From a virus (taxonomy: Duplodnaviria; Heunggongvirae; Uroviricota; Caudoviricetes), in IMG/VR virus record IMGVR_UViG_2602041568_000003: DNA of 9,911 nucleotides. One strand, 5' to 3'. The notes beneath the pieces were generated by a model that did no database searches, had not been told where the DNA came from, and saw only the letters and a list, made by a program, of their open reading frames with translations. Position 1 is the first letter of the stretch. The number at the start of each line of letters is the position of its first letter. Both the position numbers and the translations under genes were made by a program. Below are positions 179-9,911 of this stretch, piece after piece.

Positions 179-931
179 ATGGCAACACCAAATCCCCTTG
201 AGCCGGTAAAAGGTGCCGGTACCACTCTGTGGGTTTACAACGGCAAGGGTGATGCTTATGCAAACCCGTTGTCAGACGATGACTGGCAGCGACTGGCTAA
301 GGTGAAGGATCTGACGCCGGGCGAGATGACGGCAGAATCCTACGATGATAACTACCTGGATGATGAAGACGCGGACTGGACCGCGACCGGTCAGGGGCAG
401 AAATCTGCAGGTGATACCAGTTTTACGCTGGCCTGGAAACCGGGAGAGGAAGGCCAGAAAGGGCTTATAGGCTGGTTTGAAAGCGGCGATGTCCGGGCCT
501 ATAAAATCCGTTTTCCGAATGGCACGGTGGATGTGTTTCGTGGCTGGGTCAGCAGTATCGGTAAGGCCGTGACGGCGAAAGAAGTGATCACCCGCACGGT
601 GAAAGTCACTAACGTGGGTAAACCTTCTGTAGCGGAAGAACGCAGCAAAATTACGCCGGTCAGTGCGATTAAGGTGACGCCGACATCCGGTACGGTGGCA
701 AAAGGGAAAACAACCACCCTGACGGTTTCTTTTGAGCCGGAAAGTGCAACCGACAAGACGTTCAGAGCGGTTTCCGCCGATCCGTCGAAAGCCACCATTA
801 GTGTGAAAGATATGACAATTACGGTAAACGGCGTGGCGACAGGTAAGGTGCAGATCCCTGTGGTGAGCGGAAATGGTCAGTTCGCCGCAGTGGCTGAAGT
901 CACCGTTACTGAAGCGGGCGCTGCAGGGTAA
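179..931 (+). CDS. V: Major tail tube protein V (250 aa) with C-terminal Ig-like domain
   Basis: ORF 179-931; Shine-Dalgarno GAGGA 4-5 nt upstream of ATG; N-terminus ([66 protein letters not shown]) matches lambda gpV as I recall it; C-terminal ~90 aa are Thr/Val-rich beta-type sequence consistent with the Ig-like (Big_2) domain of gpV. Confidence 0.95.
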
Positions 932-4370: not shown

Positions 4371-4696
4371 AAACCTTTCGCTGGAAAGTGAAGCCGGATA
4401 TGGAGGTGAACTCGCAGCCATCGGTGCGTGAAGTGCGTTTTGGTGACGGGTACTCACAGCGTATGGCGGCAGGGCTGAATGCTGACCTGAAAACATACAG
4501 GGTGACGCTTTCCGTGACCCGGGAGGAGGCCCGGCATCTGGAAGCGTTCCTGGCAGAGCACGGTGGCTGGAAGGCATTTTTGTGGAAGCCACCCTATGCA
4601 TACCGGCAGATAAAGGTGACCTGTGCCGGGTGGTCTGCGCGGGTCGGGATGTTGCGTGTTGAGTTCAGCGCAGAGTTTGAACAGGTGGTGAACTGA
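4367..4696 (+). CDS. M: Tail tip protein M (109 aa)
   Basis: ORF 4367-4696; ATG overlaps the H stop (ATGA at 4367-4370); SD GGGAG upstream; position and size as lambda gpM. Confidence 0.93.
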   Translation: MKTFRWKVKPDMEVNSQPSVREVRFGDGYSQRMAAGLNADLKTYRVTLSVTREEARHLEAFLAEHGGWKAFLWKPPYAYRQIKVTCAGWSARVGMLRVEFSAEFEQVVN

Positions 4697-5394
4697 TGCA
4701 GGATATTCGAGAAGAAAGTCTGAACGAGTCGGTTAAGTCAGAGCAGTCACCGCGGGTGGTACTCTGGGAAATCGACCTGACGGTACAGGGTGGTGAGCGG
4801 TATTTTTTCTGTAATGAGCTGAATGAAAAAGGGGAGCCGGTCACCTGGCAGGGGCGTAAGTATGAGGCATACCCGATTGACGGCAGCGGCTTTGAGATGA
4901 ACGGCCGGGGCAGCAGTGCCAGACCGTCGCTGACGGTGTCCAATCTGTTCGGTCTGGTCACCGGGATGGCGGAAGACCTGCAGAGTCTGGTGGGGGCCAC
5001 GGTGGTCCGCCGCCGGGTGTATGCCCGTTTTCTGGATGCGGTGAATTTCGTTGCGGGCAATCCGGAGGCGGACCCGGAGCAGGAGCTGAGTGACCGCTGG
5101 GTGGTGGAGCAGATGTCGCAGCTGACAGCCATGACGGCCTCGTTTGTGCTGGCTACACCGACCGAGACGGACGGGGCGCTGTTTCCCGGTCGCATCATGC
5201 TGGCGAACACCTGTATGTGGGATTACCGGGGAGATGAATGCGGGTATAACGGTCCTGCGGTGGCGGATGAGTTCGACAACCCCACCACGGATATCCGTAA
5301 GGACAGATGCAGCAAGTGCATGCGCGGGTGTGAACTGCGCAGGAATGTCGGCAATTTTGGCGGTTTCCTTTCCATTAATAAACTTTCGCAGTAA
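4696..5394 (+). CDS. L: Tail tip protein L (232 aa)
   Basis: ORF 4696-5394; start overlaps the M stop (TGATG); SD AGGTGG upstream; C-terminal Cys cluster (CMWDYRGDECGY...CSKCMRGC) consistent with the metal-binding gpL family; size as lambda gpL. Confidence 0.93.
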   Translation: MQDIREESLNESVKSEQSPRVVLWEIDLTVQGGERYFFCNELNEKGEPVTWQGRKYEAYPIDGSGFEMNGRGSSARPSLTVSNLFGLVTGMAEDLQSLVGATVVRRRVYARFLDAVNFVAGNPEADPEQELSDRWVVEQMSQLTAMTASFVLATPTETDGALFPGRIMLANTCMWDYRGDECGYNGPAVADEFDNPTTDIRKDRCSKCMRGCELRRNVGNFGGFLSINKLSQ

Positions 5395-5445: not shown

Positions 5446-6138
5446 GTGTGCGCCTGCGGAGTCGTGATAAGCACGCCGGAGGGGGAGTGGTATATCCCTT
5501 GTGTGAATATTTCTGCAGAGCCGGAGGCGTATTTTCGTATCGCACCGGAAGACTGGCTGCGGGCAGAGATGCAGGGGGAGATTGTGGCACTGGTCCACAG
5601 TCATCCCGGTGGGCTGCCCTGGCTGAGCGAGGCTGACCGGCGGCTGCAGATAAAAAGCGCACTGCCCTGGTGGCTGGTCTGCCGGGGTGACATTCACAAA
5701 TTCCGCTGCGTGCCGCACCTGACGGGACGGCGCTTTGAGCACGGGGTGACGGACTGTTACACCCTGTTCCGGGATGCATACCATCTGGCGGGGACTGAAA
5801 TGCCGGATTTTCATCGCGAGGATGACTGGTGGCGCCACGGTCAGAACCTTTACCTGGACAATATGGCGGTCACCGGCTTTTACCGGGTGCCCCTGTCCTC
5901 TGCACAGGCGGGCGATATTCTGCTGTGCTGCTTTGGTGCTTCGGTACCGAACCATGCCGCCATTTACTGCGGCAACGGTGAGCTGCTTCACCATCTGCCT
6001 GAACAACTGAGTAAACGGGAGAGGTATTCCGAAAAATGGCAACGACGAACGCATTCTGTCTGGCGTCACCGCCACTGGCACGCATCTGCCTTCACGGGGA
6101 TTTGCAACGATTTGGCCGCCGCCTCAGCCTGTATGTGA
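5446..6138 (+). CDS. K: Tail tip assembly protein K (JAMM/MPN-like plus NlpC/P60-like); 5' boundary uncertain (GTG 5446 as drawn; alternative ATG 5405 is in another frame)
   Basis: ORF 5446-6138 contains the JAMM-type motif HSHPGGLPWLSEAD (HxHx7SxxD) near the N-terminus and a C-terminal region with conserved Cys/His typical of gpK; the 3' end overlaps I by 103 nt. The start is ambiguous: an ATG at 5405, 11 nt after the L stop, opens a 20-codon frame that stops at 5465-5467. Confidence 0.8.
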   Translation: MCACGVVISTPEGEWYIPCVNISAEPEAYFRIAPEDWLRAEMQGEIVALVHSHPGGLPWLSEADRRLQIKSALPWWLVCRGDIHKFRCVPHLTGRRFEHGVTDCYTLFRDAYHLAGTEMPDFHREDDWWRHGQNLYLDNMAVTGFYRVPLSSAQAGDILLCCFGASVPNHAAIYCGNGELLHHLPEQLSKRERYSEKWQRRTHSVWRHRHWHASAFTGICNDLAAASACM

Positions 6139-6716
6139 ACACGGCAGCGGAAGCCATTCGCGCCCTGTCGATGCAGATGCCGGGCTTTCGCCGTCAGATG
6201 AACGAAGGCTGGTACCAGATACGTATTGCCGGTGATGACACGGCACCGGAGGCGGTGTATGCCCGTCTTCACGAACAGCTGGGTGAGGGAACGGTCATCC
6301 ACATTGTGCCGCGACTGGCCGGGGCCGGAAAGGGTGGACTGCAGATTGTGCTGGGGGCGGCAGCCATCGTGGGCTCTTTCTTCACGGCCGGAGGCTCGAT
6401 GGCGTTATGGGGTACAGCCCTGAGTGCCGGTGGTTTTTCTGCCACCACGATGCTGTTTTCACTGGGTGCCAGCATGATACTGGGCGGAGTGGCCCAGATG
6501 CTGGCCCCGAAGGCAAAAACACCGGATTACCGCGCAACGGATAACGGCAGACAGAACACGTACTTTTCCTCGCTGGATAACATGATTGCCCAGGGGAACC
6601 CGATGCCGGTGCCTTACGGGGAAATGCTGGTTGGCTCCCGCCGTATATCCCAGGACATCAGCACCCGTGATGAAGGCGGGGGCGGAAAGGTCGTGGTTAT
6701 CGGGCGGCAGGGGTAA
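6036..6716 (+). CDS. I: Tail tip assembly protein I (226 aa)
   Basis: ORF 6036-6716; SD GGGAGAGG upstream; motifs ARICLYGDLQRFGRR-like (here ARICLHGDLQRFGRR), IHIVPR, QIVLGAAAI, MLAPKA, QNTYFSSLDNM and C-terminal VVVIGR match lambda gpI as I recall it. Confidence 0.92.
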   Translation: MATTNAFCLASPPLARICLHGDLQRFGRRLSLYVNTAAEAIRALSMQMPGFRRQMNEGWYQIRIAGDDTAPEAVYARLHEQLGEGTVIHIVPRLAGAGKGGLQIVLGAAAIVGSFFTAGGSMALWGTALSAGGFSATTMLFSLGASMILGGVAQMLAPKAKTPDYRATDNGRQNTYFSSLDNMIAQGNPMPVPYGEMLVGSRRISQDISTRDEGGGGKVVVIGRQG

Positions 6717-6721
6717 AAAGA

Positions 6722-6820
6722 ATAAAAAAATCCCGCAGTGATCGCGGACAGGAACTGCGGGAGAGTTACGAAGATTAAGTGTAAGGAATTATTCTTATAT
6801 CACGACAAAAAAATTAACGC
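6722..6820 (-). ncRNA. Candidate ~100-nt small RNA (promoter-to-terminator unit, no ORF)
   Basis: Bounded by the minus-strand promoter (-10 at 6832-6827) and the minus-strand terminator at 6762-6731 plus U-tail; the predicted transcript has no ATG and only GTG/TTG followed within 2-3 codons by stops; it contains an AAGAAUAAU tract and ends in a U-tail. Ends are predicted, not mapped. Confidence 0.35.
6731..6762 (-). terminator. Intrinsic (rho-independent) terminator, minus-strand orientation
   Basis: Perfect 9-bp stem (6731-6739 TCCCGCAGT with 6754-6762 ACTGCGGGA) and 14-nt loop; on the minus strand it is followed directly by a U-run (rc of 6717-6730 = TTTTTTTATTCTTT). On the + strand the stem is followed by GAGTTACG, so it is not a + strand terminator. 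Confidence 0.55.
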
Positions 6821-6826
6821 AGAGAA

Positions 6827-6854
6827 ATTATACGCGCCACAGTCAGTGTGTGAA
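6827..6854 (-). promoter_or_regulatory. Sigma70-like promoter, minus strand (-35 TTCACA / 16-bp spacer / -10 TATAAT)
   Basis: On the minus strand: TTCACA (rc of 6849-6854), 16-nt spacer, perfect TATAAT (rc of 6827-6832); predicted start near 6820; it sits in the only AT-rich stretch of the window. Confidence 0.5.
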
Positions 6855-6926
6855 AATGTGAAGATATTCAGAATTTTTATGCCATTACCGGTTTTAACCA
6901 ACAGGATTATCGGTGGGCATGAAAGA

Positions 6927-6956
6927 AAACCCCGGTATCTGCTGATACCGGGGTTT
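6927..6956. terminator. Strong bidirectional intrinsic terminator
   Basis: 13-bp stem (6927-6939 AAACCCCGGTATC with 6944-6956 GATACCGGGGTTT), 4-nt loop TGCT; + strand downstream TTTCTCTTT-type U-rich tail (CTCTTT after the stem), minus strand downstream UUUUCUUUC (rc of 6918-6926). Confidence 0.6.
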
Positions 6957-7059
6957 CTCTTTAGCATGGCAGAAATGTGTTTCATGCTTTTCGGGCGAAG
7001 GATATCCGACTTCTGTACGGAATGGCAAGTGGCGGTTAATTTATTCAGGGGAAGGCTGT

Positions 7060-9911
7060 ATGGGAAAAGGTGGCGGTAAGGCACACACGCCTCGTGAGGC
7101 GAAGGATAATCTCAAATCCACGCAGATGATGAGTGTGATTGATGCGATTGGTGAGGGACCGATAGAAGGTCCGGTGAAGGGACTGCAGAGTATTCTGGTG
7201 AACAAAACCCCGCTGACGGACACGGACGGTAATCCCGTGATACACGGTGTGACCGCGGTCTGGCGTGCCGGGGAGCAGGAGCAGACACCACCGGAAGGCT
7301 TTGAGTCCTCCGGAGCTGAAACCGGACTGGGCGTGGAAGTGACGAAGGCAAAACCGGTGACGCGCACCATTACGTCCGCGAACATTGACCGCCTGCTGAT
7401 TCAGTTACAGCGTAACGGTAACTGGGTGACAGAAAAGGACGTCACCATTAACGGCAAGACCACCTCACAGTTCCTGGCCTCGGTGATTCTGGATAATCTG
7501 CCTCCCCGGCCCTTTAACATCCGGATGGTCAGGGAGACGGCGGACAGCACCACGGACCAGCTGCAGAATAAGACGCTGTGGTCGTCATACACCGAAATCA
7601 TCGATGTGAAACAGTGCTACCCGAACACGGCCATTGTGGGGCTGCAGGTGGATGCGGAGCAGTTCGGCGGCCAGCAGATGACGGTGAACTACCATATCCG
7701 CGGTCGTATCATCCAGGTGCCGTCAAACTATGACCCGGAAAAACGCACGTACAGTGGTATCTGGGACGGCAGTCTGAAACCGGCATACAGCAACAACCCG
7801 GCCTGGTGCCTGTGGGACATGCTGACTCACCCGCGCTACGGCATGGGAAAACGTCTGGGGGCGGCGGATGTGGACAAGTGGGCGCTGTATGCCATCGGGC
7901 AGTACTGCGATCAGACGGTCCCGGATGGTTTCGGGGGGACCGAGCCGCGGATGACCTTTAATGCGTACCTGGCACAACAGCGTAAGGCGTGGGACGTTCT
8001 CAGTGATTTCTGCTCTGCGATGCGCTGTATGCCGGTATGGAACGGGCAGACGCTGACGTTCGTGCAGGACCGCCCATCGGATAAGGTGTGGCCGTACACC
8101 AACAGCGATGTGGTGGTGGATGATAACGGCGTGGGATTCCGCTACAGCTTCAGTGCCCTGAAGGACCGGCACACGGCGGTGGAGGTGAATTACACCGACC
8201 CGCAGAACGGCTGGCAGACCTCCACGGAACTGGTGGAAGACCCGGAAGCCATACTGCGCTACGGACGCAACCTGCTGAAGATGGACGCGTTCGGCTGTAC
8301 CAGCCGCGGTCAGGCCCACCGTGCCGGACTGTGGGTGATAAAGACCGAACTGCTGGAAACGCAGACGGTGGATTTCACGCTCGGGTCTCAGGGGCTGCGG
8401 CACACACCCGGTGACATCATTGAAATCTGTGATAACGACTATGCCGGGATCCTGACCGGCGGACGTGTCCTGTCCATTGATGCTGCCACCCGCACCCTGA
8501 CGCTGGACCGTGAAGTGACACTTCCGGAGACCGGTGCCGCCACGGTGAACCTGATTAACGGCAGCGGTAAGCCAGTGAGTGTGGACATCACCGAACACCC
8601 CGCGCCGGACCGGATACAGGTCAGTACCCTGCCTGATGGTGTGGAGACATACGGGGTGTGGGGACTCTCCCTGCCGTCACTGCGCCGTCGCCTGTTCCGC
8701 TGTGTCTCCGTCCGGGAAAACACGGACGGCACCTTTGCCATCACGGCGGTGCAGCACGTACCGGAAAAAGAAGCCATCGTGGATAACGGTGCCCGCTTTG
8801 AGCCGCAGTCAGGTTCCCTGAACAACGTCATCCCACCGGCAGTGCAGCACCTGACGGTGGAGGTGAGCGCAGCTGACGGCCAGTATCTGGCGCAGGCGAA
8901 ATGGGACACGCCGCGGGTGGTGAAGGGTGTGCGCTTCAGTCTGCGCCTGACCAGTGGTAAGGGAACGGATGCCAGACTGGTGACCACCGCCATCACCGCA
9001 GACACGGAGCACCGTTTCAGCGGCCTGCCGCTCGGGGAATACACCCTGACGGTGCGGGCGATAAACAGCTATGGCCAGCAGGGTGAACCTGCCACCACCA
9101 CCTTCCGGATTGCCGCACCGGCAGCACCGTCGCGGATTGAGCTGACGCCGGGCTATTTTCAGATAACCGCCACGCCGCATCTTGCCGTTTATGACCCGAC
9201 GGTACAGTTTGAGTTCTGGTTCTCGGAAAAGCGGATTGCGGATATCAGGCAGGTTGAAACCGCAGCCCGCTATCTTGGCTCGGCGCTGTACTGGATAGCT
9301 GCCAGTATCAATATCAAACCGGGCCATGATTATTATTTTTATATCCGCAGTGTGAATACTGTTGGCAAATCGGCATTCGTGGAGGCTGTCGGTCGGGCGA
9401 GCGATGATGCGGAAGGTTACCTGGATTTTTTCAAAGGAGAAATCGGGAAAACACATCTGGCCCAGGAGCTGTGGACGCAGATTGATAACGGTCAGCTTGC
9501 GCCGGACCTGGCTGAAATCAGGACGTCCATTACGAATGTCAGCAATGAAATCACGCAGACCGTCAATAAAAAACTGGAAAATCAGAGTGCGGCAATCCAG
9601 CAGATACAGAAAGTTCAGGTTGATACAAATAATAACCTGAACAGCATGTGGGCCGTGAAACTGCAGCAGATGCAGGACGGACGCCTTTATATTGCGGGTA
9701 TCGGTGCCGGTATTGAGAATACGCCAGCAGGAATGCAGAGTCAGGTGCTGCTGGCGGCAGACAGGATTGCGATGATTAATCCTGCGAATGGCAACACAAA
9801 GCCGATGTTTGTTGGTCAGGGCGATCAGATATTTATGAATGAAGTGTTCCTGAAATATCTGACGGCTCCCACCATTACCAGCGGCGGTAATCCTCCGGCA
9901 TTTTCCCTGAC
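7060..9911 (+). CDS. J: Tail tip / central tail fibre protein J, N-terminal ~950 codons (3'-truncated by window edge)
   Basis: ATG at 7060 with SD GGGGAAGG 6-8 nt upstream; the frame (codon phase of 7060) reads without a stop to the window end, which is why it is missing from the ORF track; translation begins [39 protein letters not shown] and continues through recognisable gpJ blocks ([162 protein letters not shown]). Confidence 0.95.

Follow-up and report, generated by a model that had tools for sequence, protein, structure and literature searches.

The AT-rich I-J spacer of a lambda-type tail gene cluster: a probable small RNA moron of the PasB/EcOnc22-24 family joined to a terminator cassette

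Introduction

Small regulatory RNAs (sRNAs) carried by prophages rewire host regulation in pathogenic Escherichia coli, and few of them have known targets. We analysed the 343-bp gap between the tail genes I and J within 9,911 nucleotides of DNA from a lambda-type tailed phage (IMG/VR virus record IMGVR_UViG_2602041568_000003; this whole stretch is called the window below). The closest described systems are PasB of enteropathogenic E. coli (EPEC) and EcOnc22, EcOnc23 and EcOnc24 of the enterohaemorrhagic E. coli (EHEC) strain Sakai.

PasB was mapped on the minus strand of NC_011601.1, from 1466343 to 1466261, as an 83-nt RNA of prophage PP6 that is convergent with the upstream gene, and the probe used for its detection was AATCCCGCAGTGATCGCGGAGCT (Pearl Mizrahi et al. 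2021, PMC8550237, Table S6). Its expression was confirmed by northern blot, its level fell strongly in the hfq deletion (log2 fold change of -6.8 and -2.4), and in RIL-seq (which detects RNA interactions through ligation followed by sequencing) it formed 37 interactions, rank 15 by interaction number, with core and accessory mRNAs as partners in trans (PMC8550237). A seed in the segment just 5' of the terminator has been proposed for PasB (Zhu, Shabalina and Storz 2026, bioRxiv 10.64898/2026.05.13.724894).

EcOnc22, EcOnc23 and EcOnc24 were described as homologous orphan Hfq-binding sites in the Sakai prophages Sp15, Sp14 and Sp11, respectively (Tree et al. 2014, PMC4104026, Table S2). Northern blots gave a size of about 85 nt for these RNAs, which become less stable when hfq is deleted (PMC4104026), and in a 2021 review the targets of EcOnc22 were given as unknown. 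Table S6 of the 2021 PasB paper gives no EHEC homologue for PasB (PMC8550237), and the EcOnc RNAs are unmentioned in the 2026 PasB preprint (bioRxiv 10.64898/2026.05.13.724894).

A small RNA gene opposite to the tail operon

The AT-rich I-J gap of the window is the locus of a small regulatory RNA gene and not an inert spacer. As a whole, we read it with good confidence as an sRNA moron followed by a terminator cassette. The I-proximal part, module 1, forms a complete transcription unit on the minus strand, opposite to the tail operon, with a promoter, an RNA of about 97 nt and, at its end, an intrinsic terminator that runs out into seven U residues. The features of the spacer and of module 1 are as follows.

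6717-7059, no strand assigned: I-J spacer, 343 bp, GC content 0.42, made up of module 1 (6717-6880) and module 2 (6881-7059).
6827-6854, minus strand: sigma-70 promoter, TTCACA, 16 nt, TATAAT, 11 of 12 matches, with the start predicted near 6820 (promoter scan).
6724-6820, minus strand: sRNA gene, the window-type (W) allele of the PasB/EcOnc22-24 family, predicted primary transcript about 97 nt (covariance model, PasB alignment, PasB probe match).
6788-6796, minus strand: run of A-R-N triplets, RNA AAGAAUAAU; runs of 2-5 such triplets occur in 8 of 8 representative alleles.
6763-6788, minus strand: single-stranded C/U-rich core and linker, RNA UUCCUUACACUUAAUCUUCGUAACUCU, candidate seed, unpaired in the consensus fold.
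6724-6762, minus strand: intrinsic terminator with the stem CCCGCAG/CUGCGGG (6756-6762 paired with 6732-6738), a variable loop, then A and U7 (6731-6724) (terminator scan, fold).

The hairpin and the seven-U run (6762 to 6724) follow about 95 nt downstream of the promoter, and the 3' end of the predicted RNA is separated from the I stop codon by 7 nt. In the mature RNA, the 5' end may be located some 15 nt further in, which is where that of PasB (83 nt) was reported. In folding of the predicted RNA (6820 to 6724), the 5' two-thirds stay open and the terminator hairpin closes the 3' end, with z-scores of about -2.2 to -2.8. The terminator helix is the sole consensus helix found by RNAalifold, its 7 pairs being invariant in 11 alleles, and everything upstream is unpaired in the consensus; since this helix is invariant, covariation in the sRNA is uninformative about it. 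The RNA contains no AUG. A-R-N runs are an established contact for the distal face of Hfq, and the run of the W allele would be expected to make the same contact.

The end of module 1 was set at the point where long and short J-proximal cassettes diverge (see below). Matches to Shiga toxin (Stx) phages also stop there (query 9-164/167); Stx1a and Stx2c phages match spacer query positions 9-164 at about 94%, which is exactly the module-1 unit, and the whole spacer was matched in only 13 phage records. A lambdoid prophage beside dusA in uropathogenic E. coli (UPEC) 26-1 has an I-J gap that matches the complete spacer at 100% identity, as do many other strains.

The initial annotation had described the gap as an AT-rich, terminator-flanked, probably non-coding insert of moron type. 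The dimensions and the composition hold: the I stop codon TAA lies at 6714-6716 and the J start codon ATG at 7060, the GC content is 0.42 in the spacer against 0.575 in the rest of the window, and in sliding 343-bp stretches the minimum of 0.417 starts at 6711, only 0.16% of the window stretches being as low as the spacer. The A/T runs noted there are also present (A7 at 6724-6730 and at 6807-6813), and its figure of about 60 bp for the gap in lambda agrees with the lambda sequence, where I ends at 15444 and J starts at 15505, leaving 60 bp. The flanking by terminators has to be revised in part. There is a terminator near I (6732-6762 followed by A7), which acts on the minus strand only, as no T-run follows the hairpin on the plus strand; the second hairpin (6930-6953), however, lies about 105 bp before J and not at the J edge. 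Likewise, "probably non-coding" holds for protein, no credible open reading frame (ORF) being present, but not for RNA, because the minus-strand promoter-RNA-terminator unit had been overlooked.

Relationship to PasB of EPEC

The coordinates of PasB in strain E2348/69 fall in a 240-bp gap between the genes for a tail assembly protein and gpJ. PasB and the W allele thus share the I-J junction and the antisense orientation. The first 20 of the 23 nt of the PasB probe are identical to window positions 6729-6748. In the alignment of the window spacer with the E2348/69 spacer, the terminator and promoter blocks are nearly identical while the RNA body has diverged: the -35 and -10 hexamers are the same in the W allele and in the E2348/69 promoter, the block upstream of the promoter is nearly identical, the 3' arm of the terminator and the U7 are identical, and the core UCCUU..AUCUUC, an A-R-N run and a 5' region that is unstructured in the consensus are common to both.

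A covariance model was built from seven alleles of other than W type, namely PasB, two close variants of it, a deletion variant, the Sakai allele and two intermediates. This model matched the window from 6820 to 6724 over its full length (model positions 1-98) with 64.9 bits (E = 1.2e-14), and it also recovered other junction variants. As controls, lambda, the E. ruysiae junction, the HnrS locus and the AgvB locus gave no match. On the strength of alignment and model, the W-allele unit is a new member of the PasB/EcOnc22-24 sRNA family.

The two RNAs are nevertheless only about 74% identical. They differ in the segment just 5' of the terminator, the proposed seed of PasB, which is CGUAACUCU in the window and CAUUUGUCUGU in PasB. 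In addition, the terminator loop is 5 nt longer in the W allele, and the J-proximal cassette is the 179-bp long form in the window but the short form in E2348/69. Under the published criteria for PasB (blastn, word size 28, query coverage above 75%) the W allele gives no match, and at word size 11 only 25 nt are aligned (30% coverage). Since the published search settings miss it, the W allele presumably lies outside the published count of PasB variants.

For one PasB RIL-seq chimera, the partner carries GACAGACA adjoining the ligated fragment, which is a perfect 8-nt complement of PasB UGUCUGUC within the proposed-seed segment; the W allele cannot form this pairing. The full-length RNAduplex energy of PasB with this partner was no better than that with shuffled targets, 36.7% of the shuffles being at least as good (fraction at or below the observed value, 0.37), so that only the local 8-nt complement is informative.

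Relationship to EcOnc22-24 of EHEC Sakai

On the current Sakai assembly, the coordinates of EcOnc22-24 point to I-J gaps of 240 bp and to the strand that does not encode the tail genes, and these gaps hold a third allele of the PasB-like unit. The published positions refer to an older assembly, and the coordinate offset was therefore calibrated in two ways. The match of AgvB to its Rfam model gave +137 to +146 at 1.94 Mb, and a predicted 66-nt promoter-terminator unit of the published HnrS size gave +132 to +149 at 2.23 Mb. After correction, the EcOnc24 peak covers the PasB-like RNA body, and EcOnc22 and EcOnc23 are equally distant from their own J starts. When the EcOnc sites of 2014 are placed on NC_002695.2 (1.94-2.23 Mb) uncorrected, they point to the wrong feature, and a shift of about +132 to +149 bp is needed.

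EcOnc22-24 and the W allele are alike in the I-J position, the opposite strand, the terminator architecture and the core ...CUCCAUAACGUUAAUCUUC...; the Sakai sequence counts as the third of the deep alleles, with an identity of about 74% to the W allele as well as to PasB, and differs from the W allele also in a weaker-looking promoter, in the short cassette and in a median of 2 copies per genome. The link between PasB and EcOnc22-24, which neither PasB paper makes, is a modest addition of the present analysis and is based on synteny, alignment and offset calibration. On this reading, PasB, EcOnc22-24 and the W allele are one family at one fixed address, differing mainly in the segment likely to recognise the targets.

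Other prophage-borne sRNAs resemble the W sRNA in kind. HnrS (EcOnc10-12), AgvB and AsxR are likewise short, prophage-borne and Hfq-binding, have an intrinsic terminator and are often multicopy. They occupy other loci, however, HnrS lying between Rz and the terminase gene and AgvB and AsxR between Q and the lysis genes, and they are without sequence or model similarity to the W sRNA.

Several known RNAs were considered as the identity of the W unit. HnrS/EcOnc10-12 (66 nt, described as a late-gene element and pairing at the ribosome-binding site of hha, AGAAG) was ruled out by its Rz-terminase locus and by the lack of a model match there. The sRNA svsR of the NC-SV prophage lies at the 3' end of cI, which is another locus. 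AgvB, AsxR, Esr41 and STnc100 each have an Rfam model, and none of these matches the window.

Allele series and distribution

Among 32 distinct sequences, the RNA has a shared order: first a leader GCGUUA(A/G)U, next a U-run and an A-rich A-R-N stretch whose sequence differs by class, then a C/U-rich core (C/U)UCC(U/A)U...(A/G)AUCUU, a short linker and, last, the terminator. The three main classes (W, PasB and Sakai) are about 74% identical to one another, with the greatest difference in the core and the linker 5' of the terminator. The series is richer than these three classes, as one junction (L168) carries a further RNA-body allele with the core UUCUCUAUAGUUAAUCUUC and another (L131) has an RNA body that resembles a recombinant of the window and PasB types.

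In a set of 5,426 complete E. coli genomes, the W allele was present in 800 (about 15%), the PasB type in 918 and the Sakai type in 542. Among the matches listed, the carriers of the W allele include many human clinical and urinary isolates, and those of the Sakai type are Shiga toxin-producing E. coli (STEC) of bovine and human origin (O157:H7, O145); in none of the listed matches of W-allele, PasB or Sakai type is the matching stretch annotated. The W-allele locus is a gene left blank by current annotation pipelines. BLAST surveys with the PasB sequence undercount the family by roughly half or more, and strain differences in Hfq-dependent regulation may partly trace to the allele that the prophage carries. 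The sRNA family and its kind were already known; the window allele, the PasB-EcOnc22-24 link and the modular architecture described below are modest additions.

A CRP-like dyad upstream of the promoter

A dyad resembling the CRP recognition sequence is located 2 bp upstream of the -35 hexamer.

6857-6872, minus strand: CRP-like dyad TCTGA-N6-TCACA (pattern search).

The minus strand reads AAAT-TCTGA-ATATCT-TCACA-TTT at this position, with one mismatch, or 9 of 10 core positions, relative to TGTGA-N6-TCACA. The half-sites are kept in the window, PasB, Sakai and rarer alleles, the 6-nt spacer between them being variable (ATATCT, AACTCT, ATTTCT), and the distance from the dyad to the -10 hexamer is 24 nt in both the window and the Sakai alleles. 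The window contains 3 matches to the dyad with one mismatch, against 0.28 expected by chance. PasB is more abundant in the non-activating growth condition (PMC8550237), in which the CRP-repressed Spf is lower, a contrast that is only circumstantial. Conservation of the dyad suggests control of the sRNA by carbon source, and it offers a directly testable idea on the timing of sRNA production.

The J-proximal cassette and its hairpins

Module 2, located between the sRNA promoter and J, contains the following features.

6881-7059, no strand assigned: module 2 in its "long cassette" form, for which at least one alternative J-proximal cassette exists.
6921-6962, no strand assigned: hairpin 1, stem CCCCGGTATC/GATACCGGGG (6930-6939 paired with 6944-6953), extended by flanking A and T tracts (folding).
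6964-6992, no strand assigned: hairpin 2, weak, GCATG...CATGC then TTTTC (read from the sequence, folding).
6921-7028, minus strand: speculative second unit with the promoter-like TTGCCA, 18 nt, TATCCT (7028 to 6999), 9 of 12 matches, and an RNA of about 70 nt (promoter scan; fold -31.9 kcal/mol, z = -6.8).

Hairpin 1 consists of a 10-bp GC-rich stem with a 4-nt loop, followed by TTTCTCTTT on the plus strand and by TTTTCTTTC on the minus strand. Its region folds with z = -5.9 on the plus strand and -6.8 on the minus strand, and it looks like a bidirectional terminator because the flanking A and T tracts extend a symmetric stem. A simple terminator scanner did not list it, probably because the stem reaches into these tracts. 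The rest of module 2 up to J showed no unusual structure (z = +1.2).

Among 1451 E. coli records, the long cassette showed an identity of at least 99% in 1442; it is without diverged relatives, and was found in IMG/VR only in the I-J context. Among junctions selected through the I protein (see below), only 3 of its 174 columns were variable, all in the block of hairpin 1, against 0 of 141 in the other two segments.

Short cassettes carry another GC-rich hairpin, followed by TTGTTTT on the tail-gene strand, and in Sakai the scanner lists a terminator there. Of the variants of this hairpin, 69 of 70 cells pair on the plus strand and 66 of 70 on the minus strand, with one C-G to U-A exchange compensated via a U.G intermediate. 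The 60-bp gap of lambda (L003 1446-1505, equal to lambda 15445-15504) contains the hairpin AAACCGCC tgcg GGCGGTTT, then TGTCATTT, just before the ribosome-binding site of J, and the E. ruysiae gap (L134 2044-2103) has a lambda-type hairpin with one loop change. We know of no described function for the lambda hairpin. As such hairpins are found in lambda, in E. ruysiae and in both the short and the long cassettes, a sense-strand hairpin before J is a recurring feature; it is probably ancestral, being supplied differently by each cassette, and it merits attention as a feature of late-operon organisation.

Several short-cassette variants (L203, L212, L207, L144 and the Sakai junctions L127-L129) have GTG instead of ATG as the J start (…GAGTGGGTAAAGG…), with the purine-rich ribosome-binding site GGAGAGGGGGA.

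The minus strand of the long cassette might also carry a second sRNA gene (about 6992 to 6921), giving two tandem sRNA genes, which we consider unlikely, although it is the alternative that survives best. The order of elements is suggestive, as the weak promoter-like site is followed by hairpin 2, the A-rich linker AAAGAGAAA, the very stable hairpin 1 and the U-rich tail UUUUCUUUC, which is the typical layout of an Hfq-binding sRNA, and the cassette is nearly invariant. Against it, the promoter is weak, the EHEC list of Hfq peaks from CRAC (cDNA analysis after cross-linking) has none at such a place, and in the fold the A tract pairs with the U tract, as in a plain bidirectional terminator. 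EPEC E2348/69 carries the short cassette and is hence uninformative, as is covariation, because the sequence does not vary.

Mosaic structure of the junction

The survey of this junction comprised 113 IMG/VR junctions retrieved through the terminator sequence and 80 loci retrieved through the I protein. The latter are the 80 top-ranking loci, whose I proteins all share an identity of at least 96%, and for this reason they represent close relatives and not a broad lambdoid sample; as to the spacer they are unbiased. In species-representative genomes the I protein found 5 loci, of which three are on probable contaminant contigs, and this set is no guide to taxonomic breadth.

The two modules assort independently. 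Module 2 is either the 179-bp long cassette or a short cassette of about 75-95 bp, and the four possible pairings of a main body allele with a cassette are all represented, with crossover in the invariant block upstream of the promoter. In the set selected by I, the variable columns numbered 22 of 61 in the RNA body, 9 of 31 in the terminator, 4 of 34 in the region of the promoter hexamers and 0 of 31 in the upstream block (6855-6885), compared with 12 of 200 in the flanking part of I and 19 of 200 in that of J.

The moron concept of Juhala and Hendrix describes such accessory units, with bor and lom of lambda and sodC of lambdoid prophages as examples. The spacer behaves as a moron in being present or absent between relatives, with 60 bp in lambda and E. 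ruysiae against 234-250, 341-343 or about 850 bp elsewhere (the I proteins at the longer gaps being at least 96% identical), and in having its own promoter, its own terminator and an unlike composition. It does not encode an expressed protein, the product being an RNA. Like lambdoid morons, it is an extra unit of lower GC content, with its own promoter and terminator, between conserved genes and absent from relatives; it differs from them in the RNA product, in the orientation antisense to the late operon, and in consisting of exchangeable alleles joined to exchangeable cassettes. The moron-like reading of the initial annotation is thus well borne out: relative to lambda, which lacks the spacer, the junction contains an insertion of foreign composition that is variable and mosaic among close relatives and encodes no conserved small protein, and a classic protein moron, sodC, stands at the same junction elsewhere.

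The latter arrangement was found in five loci with an I-J gap of about 850 bp (L166 2083-2933, L204, L213, L135, L174). In these gaps, a gene on the minus strand for Cu,Zn superoxide dismutase, sodC (Pfam Sod_Cu, E = 2e-32), with its own hairpin, is located directly upstream of a W-like RNA body. The homology to the window breaks at the -10 element of the sRNA, and the covariance model still scores the copy with 49 bits. At these loci the RNA may have no source other than read-through or processing, or it may be a relic. They also prompt the question of whether the sRNA unit and the sodC moron have a common origin. In two further loci (L181, L183), the long cassette is split by a mobile element, which follows ...CAACAGGATT about 185 bp past the I stop; the insert opens with an ORF that we take, by resemblance only, to be of the IS3-family OrfA type. 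With the sodC gaps and these insertions, I-J is a hot spot for accessory DNA.

Three contigs from the species-representative search, labelled Streptomyces flavalbus, Parendozoicomonas haliclonae and a Clostridiales metagenome-assembled genome (L131, L133 and L135, respectively), carry an I protein 91-98% identical to that of the E. coli prophage. The first has a long-cassette spacer and the third the sodC variant of about 850 bp. The contigs are probably E. coli contamination of the assemblies.

Proposed mode of action

In a lysogen, the W sRNA would be transcribed from its own promoter, and Hfq would bind its U7 tail and its A-R-N run. Pairing with purine-rich sites of mRNAs would then fall to the unstructured C/U-rich segment that lies between this run and the terminator. 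Since the W allele differs from PasB in exactly this segment, it should control other targets than PasB. The gene is convergent with the late operon, and for this reason late transcription should both interfere with it and yield a perfect antisense partner of its RNA. During lytic growth, convergent late transcription would thus silence and titrate the W sRNA.

The hairpin of module 2 would provide a strong terminator-like element on the sense strand (here in both directions) between the sRNA promoter and J. Its role is likely to be to insulate J from stray transcription in the lysogen, with Q-modified polymerase reading through in lytic growth; the hairpin of the long cassette might also shield the sRNA promoter from antisense read-in. 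An insulating terminator overridden by Q-modified polymerase is what we infer to be the most likely nature of the pre-J hairpin.

A wider proposal, offered only tentatively and clearly short of an even chance, is that the I-J junction serves as a modular sRNA cassette with an exchangeable seed. A fixed scaffold of promoter with CRP-type dyad, leader, A-R-N Hfq site and terminator would carry at least three deep alleles and their recombinants, shuffled independently of the tail genes and of the J-proximal cassette, and would give rise to lineage-specific regulons dependent on carbon source. The W allele, common in extraintestinal isolates, would be a distinct regulator, and the long cassette either a bidirectional insulator or a second sRNA.

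A number of points weigh against an sRNA moron with terminator cassette as set out here. The data on expression, Hfq binding and targets come from the sister alleles only and not from the W allele, whose start site (near 6820) is only predicted, the reported 5' end of PasB lying about 15 nt downstream. Rfam gave no match in gathering mode over the whole window, there being no Rfam model for the W allele, and in an E-value-mode scan of 6400-7400 the best sub-threshold match reached 19.4 bits against a cut-off of 40 bits; a literature search with the W-allele core sequences as text strings found no paper. The link to EcOnc needs an offset that was calibrated at 1.94 and 2.23 Mb and assumed to be valid at 2.68 and 2.90 Mb. 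Uncorrected, the EcOnc22-24 peaks would land on the hairpin of the short cassette, still within the same spacer and on the same strand. The promoter of the Sakai allele is poorer (-10 AATAAT) and gave no match in the promoter scan. As for CRP, the two other one-mismatch dyads of the window (802-817 and 1789-1804) lie inside tail genes, the centre of the dyad is at about -44.5 from the predicted start and not at the canonical -41.5 or -61.5, and the contrast of PasB between growth conditions has other possible explanations, as the conditions differ in many ways. An 8-nt seed complement such as that of PasB is expected about 0.1 times by chance. Covariation supports the sense-strand hairpin only weakly, as 47 of 500 shuffles scored no worse, and the near-invariance of the long cassette could come from a recent sweep rather than from constraint.

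Alternative explanations for the sRNA unit

Slightly less probable than a second sRNA gene in the long cassette is a mainly cis-acting function, in which the RNA and its convergent promoter would control the late operon of the phage through transcriptional interference, antisense pairing at I-J, cleavage by RNase III or uncoupling of J, and targets in trans would be secondary. The geometry fits: the gene is convergent and ends 7 nt from the I stop, which gives every late transcript a stretch of about 97 nt perfectly complementary to the RNA, the I-J position is fixed in every allele and phage examined, and a sense-strand terminator hairpin always follows the sRNA gene. PasB, however, makes its 37 Hfq-mediated chimeras with core and accessory mRNAs in trans, and conserved A-R-N runs would be superfluous in an antisense RNA that acts in cis alone. 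Furthermore, the divergence of the body would be without consequence, as any sequence complements its own template, and lambda and E. ruysiae build working tails without the sRNA unit.

The five sodC loci permit another origin, namely that the RNA body and the terminator are the former 3' untranslated region and terminator of a minus-strand sodC moron, left to decay beside a promoter by chance once sodC had been lost from the junction seen in the window. The position of sodC directly upstream of a W-like body, the break of homology at the -10 element and the 49-bit score of the sodC-linked copy are all in line with this. The promoter-bearing form is, however, far commoner, with a promoter that is conserved and near consensus, and discrete RNAs of about 83-85 nt are made from the sister alleles that share it; insertion of sodC into an existing sRNA gene explains the direction equally well. 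We therefore regard this derivation as improbable, above all as a claim of no function; as an account of origin alone it may hold.

Even less credit can be given to an inert spacer, a moron scar without gene or function in which the hairpins and the promoter-like site are incidental. PGAP (Prokaryotic Genome Annotation Pipeline) annotates nothing in the spacer, Rfam finds no match, and AT-rich DNA readily gives promoter-like hexamers. Against these stand the end-to-end homology to Hfq-bound RNAs detected by northern blot in two pathotypes, the low variability of the promoter-upstream block and of the hexamers (0/31 and 4/34) while the flanking coding DNA varies, and the persistence of promoter, A-R-N run, core and terminator across alleles that are only about 74% identical.

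That the spacer encodes a small protein (for example 6738-7079 on the plus strand, 6800-7084 or 6894-7028 on the minus strand, or a short ORF of the long cassette) can practically be dismissed, for although ORFs of 20-113 amino acids exist on both strands, including the first two, which the initial annotation had correctly listed as being without ribosome-binding sites, and the long cassette is very strongly conserved, the long ORFs span freely recombining module boundaries and are broken by 1-6-nt indels between alleles, no ORF has a ribosome-binding site, the starts are GTG or TTG, the frames run through the hairpins into J in another frame, and the sRNA lacks AUG.

Flanking genes and other features of the window

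The window contains a lambda-type string of tail genes, in which Pfam matches identify L (4696-5394), K (NlpC/P60 and JAB), I and J. The spacer is bordered by the following features.

6135-6716, plus strand: tail assembly protein I, left flank (Pfam Lambda_tail_I, E = 1.8e-16; PGAP annotation in UPEC 26-1).
7047-7055, plus strand: ribosome-binding site of J, AGGGGAAGG, 4 nt ahead of the ATG (read from the sequence).
7060-9911, plus strand: tail tip protein J, right flank, incomplete at the window edge (Pfam Ig_J, Ig_J_second, Phage-tail_3, Phage_Tail_Tip, FNIII-A_GpJ).

The start of I at 6135 is the PGAP start in the UPEC 26-1 prophage, and the first in-frame ATG is at 6036.

Two observations concern other parts of the window. 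The sequence GGGAAAG at 1352-1358, in frame G GGA AAG, lies near the end of a G-like ORF (945-1376), with a T-like ORF (1403-1816) in the -1 frame; we take it to be the programmed frameshift site of a lambda-type G/GT pair, ordinary and expected at this place. Inside J, the GC content is 0.47-0.52 over 9201-9900, against 0.58-0.64 over 7701-9300, and this drop may mark a mosaic boundary in distal J.

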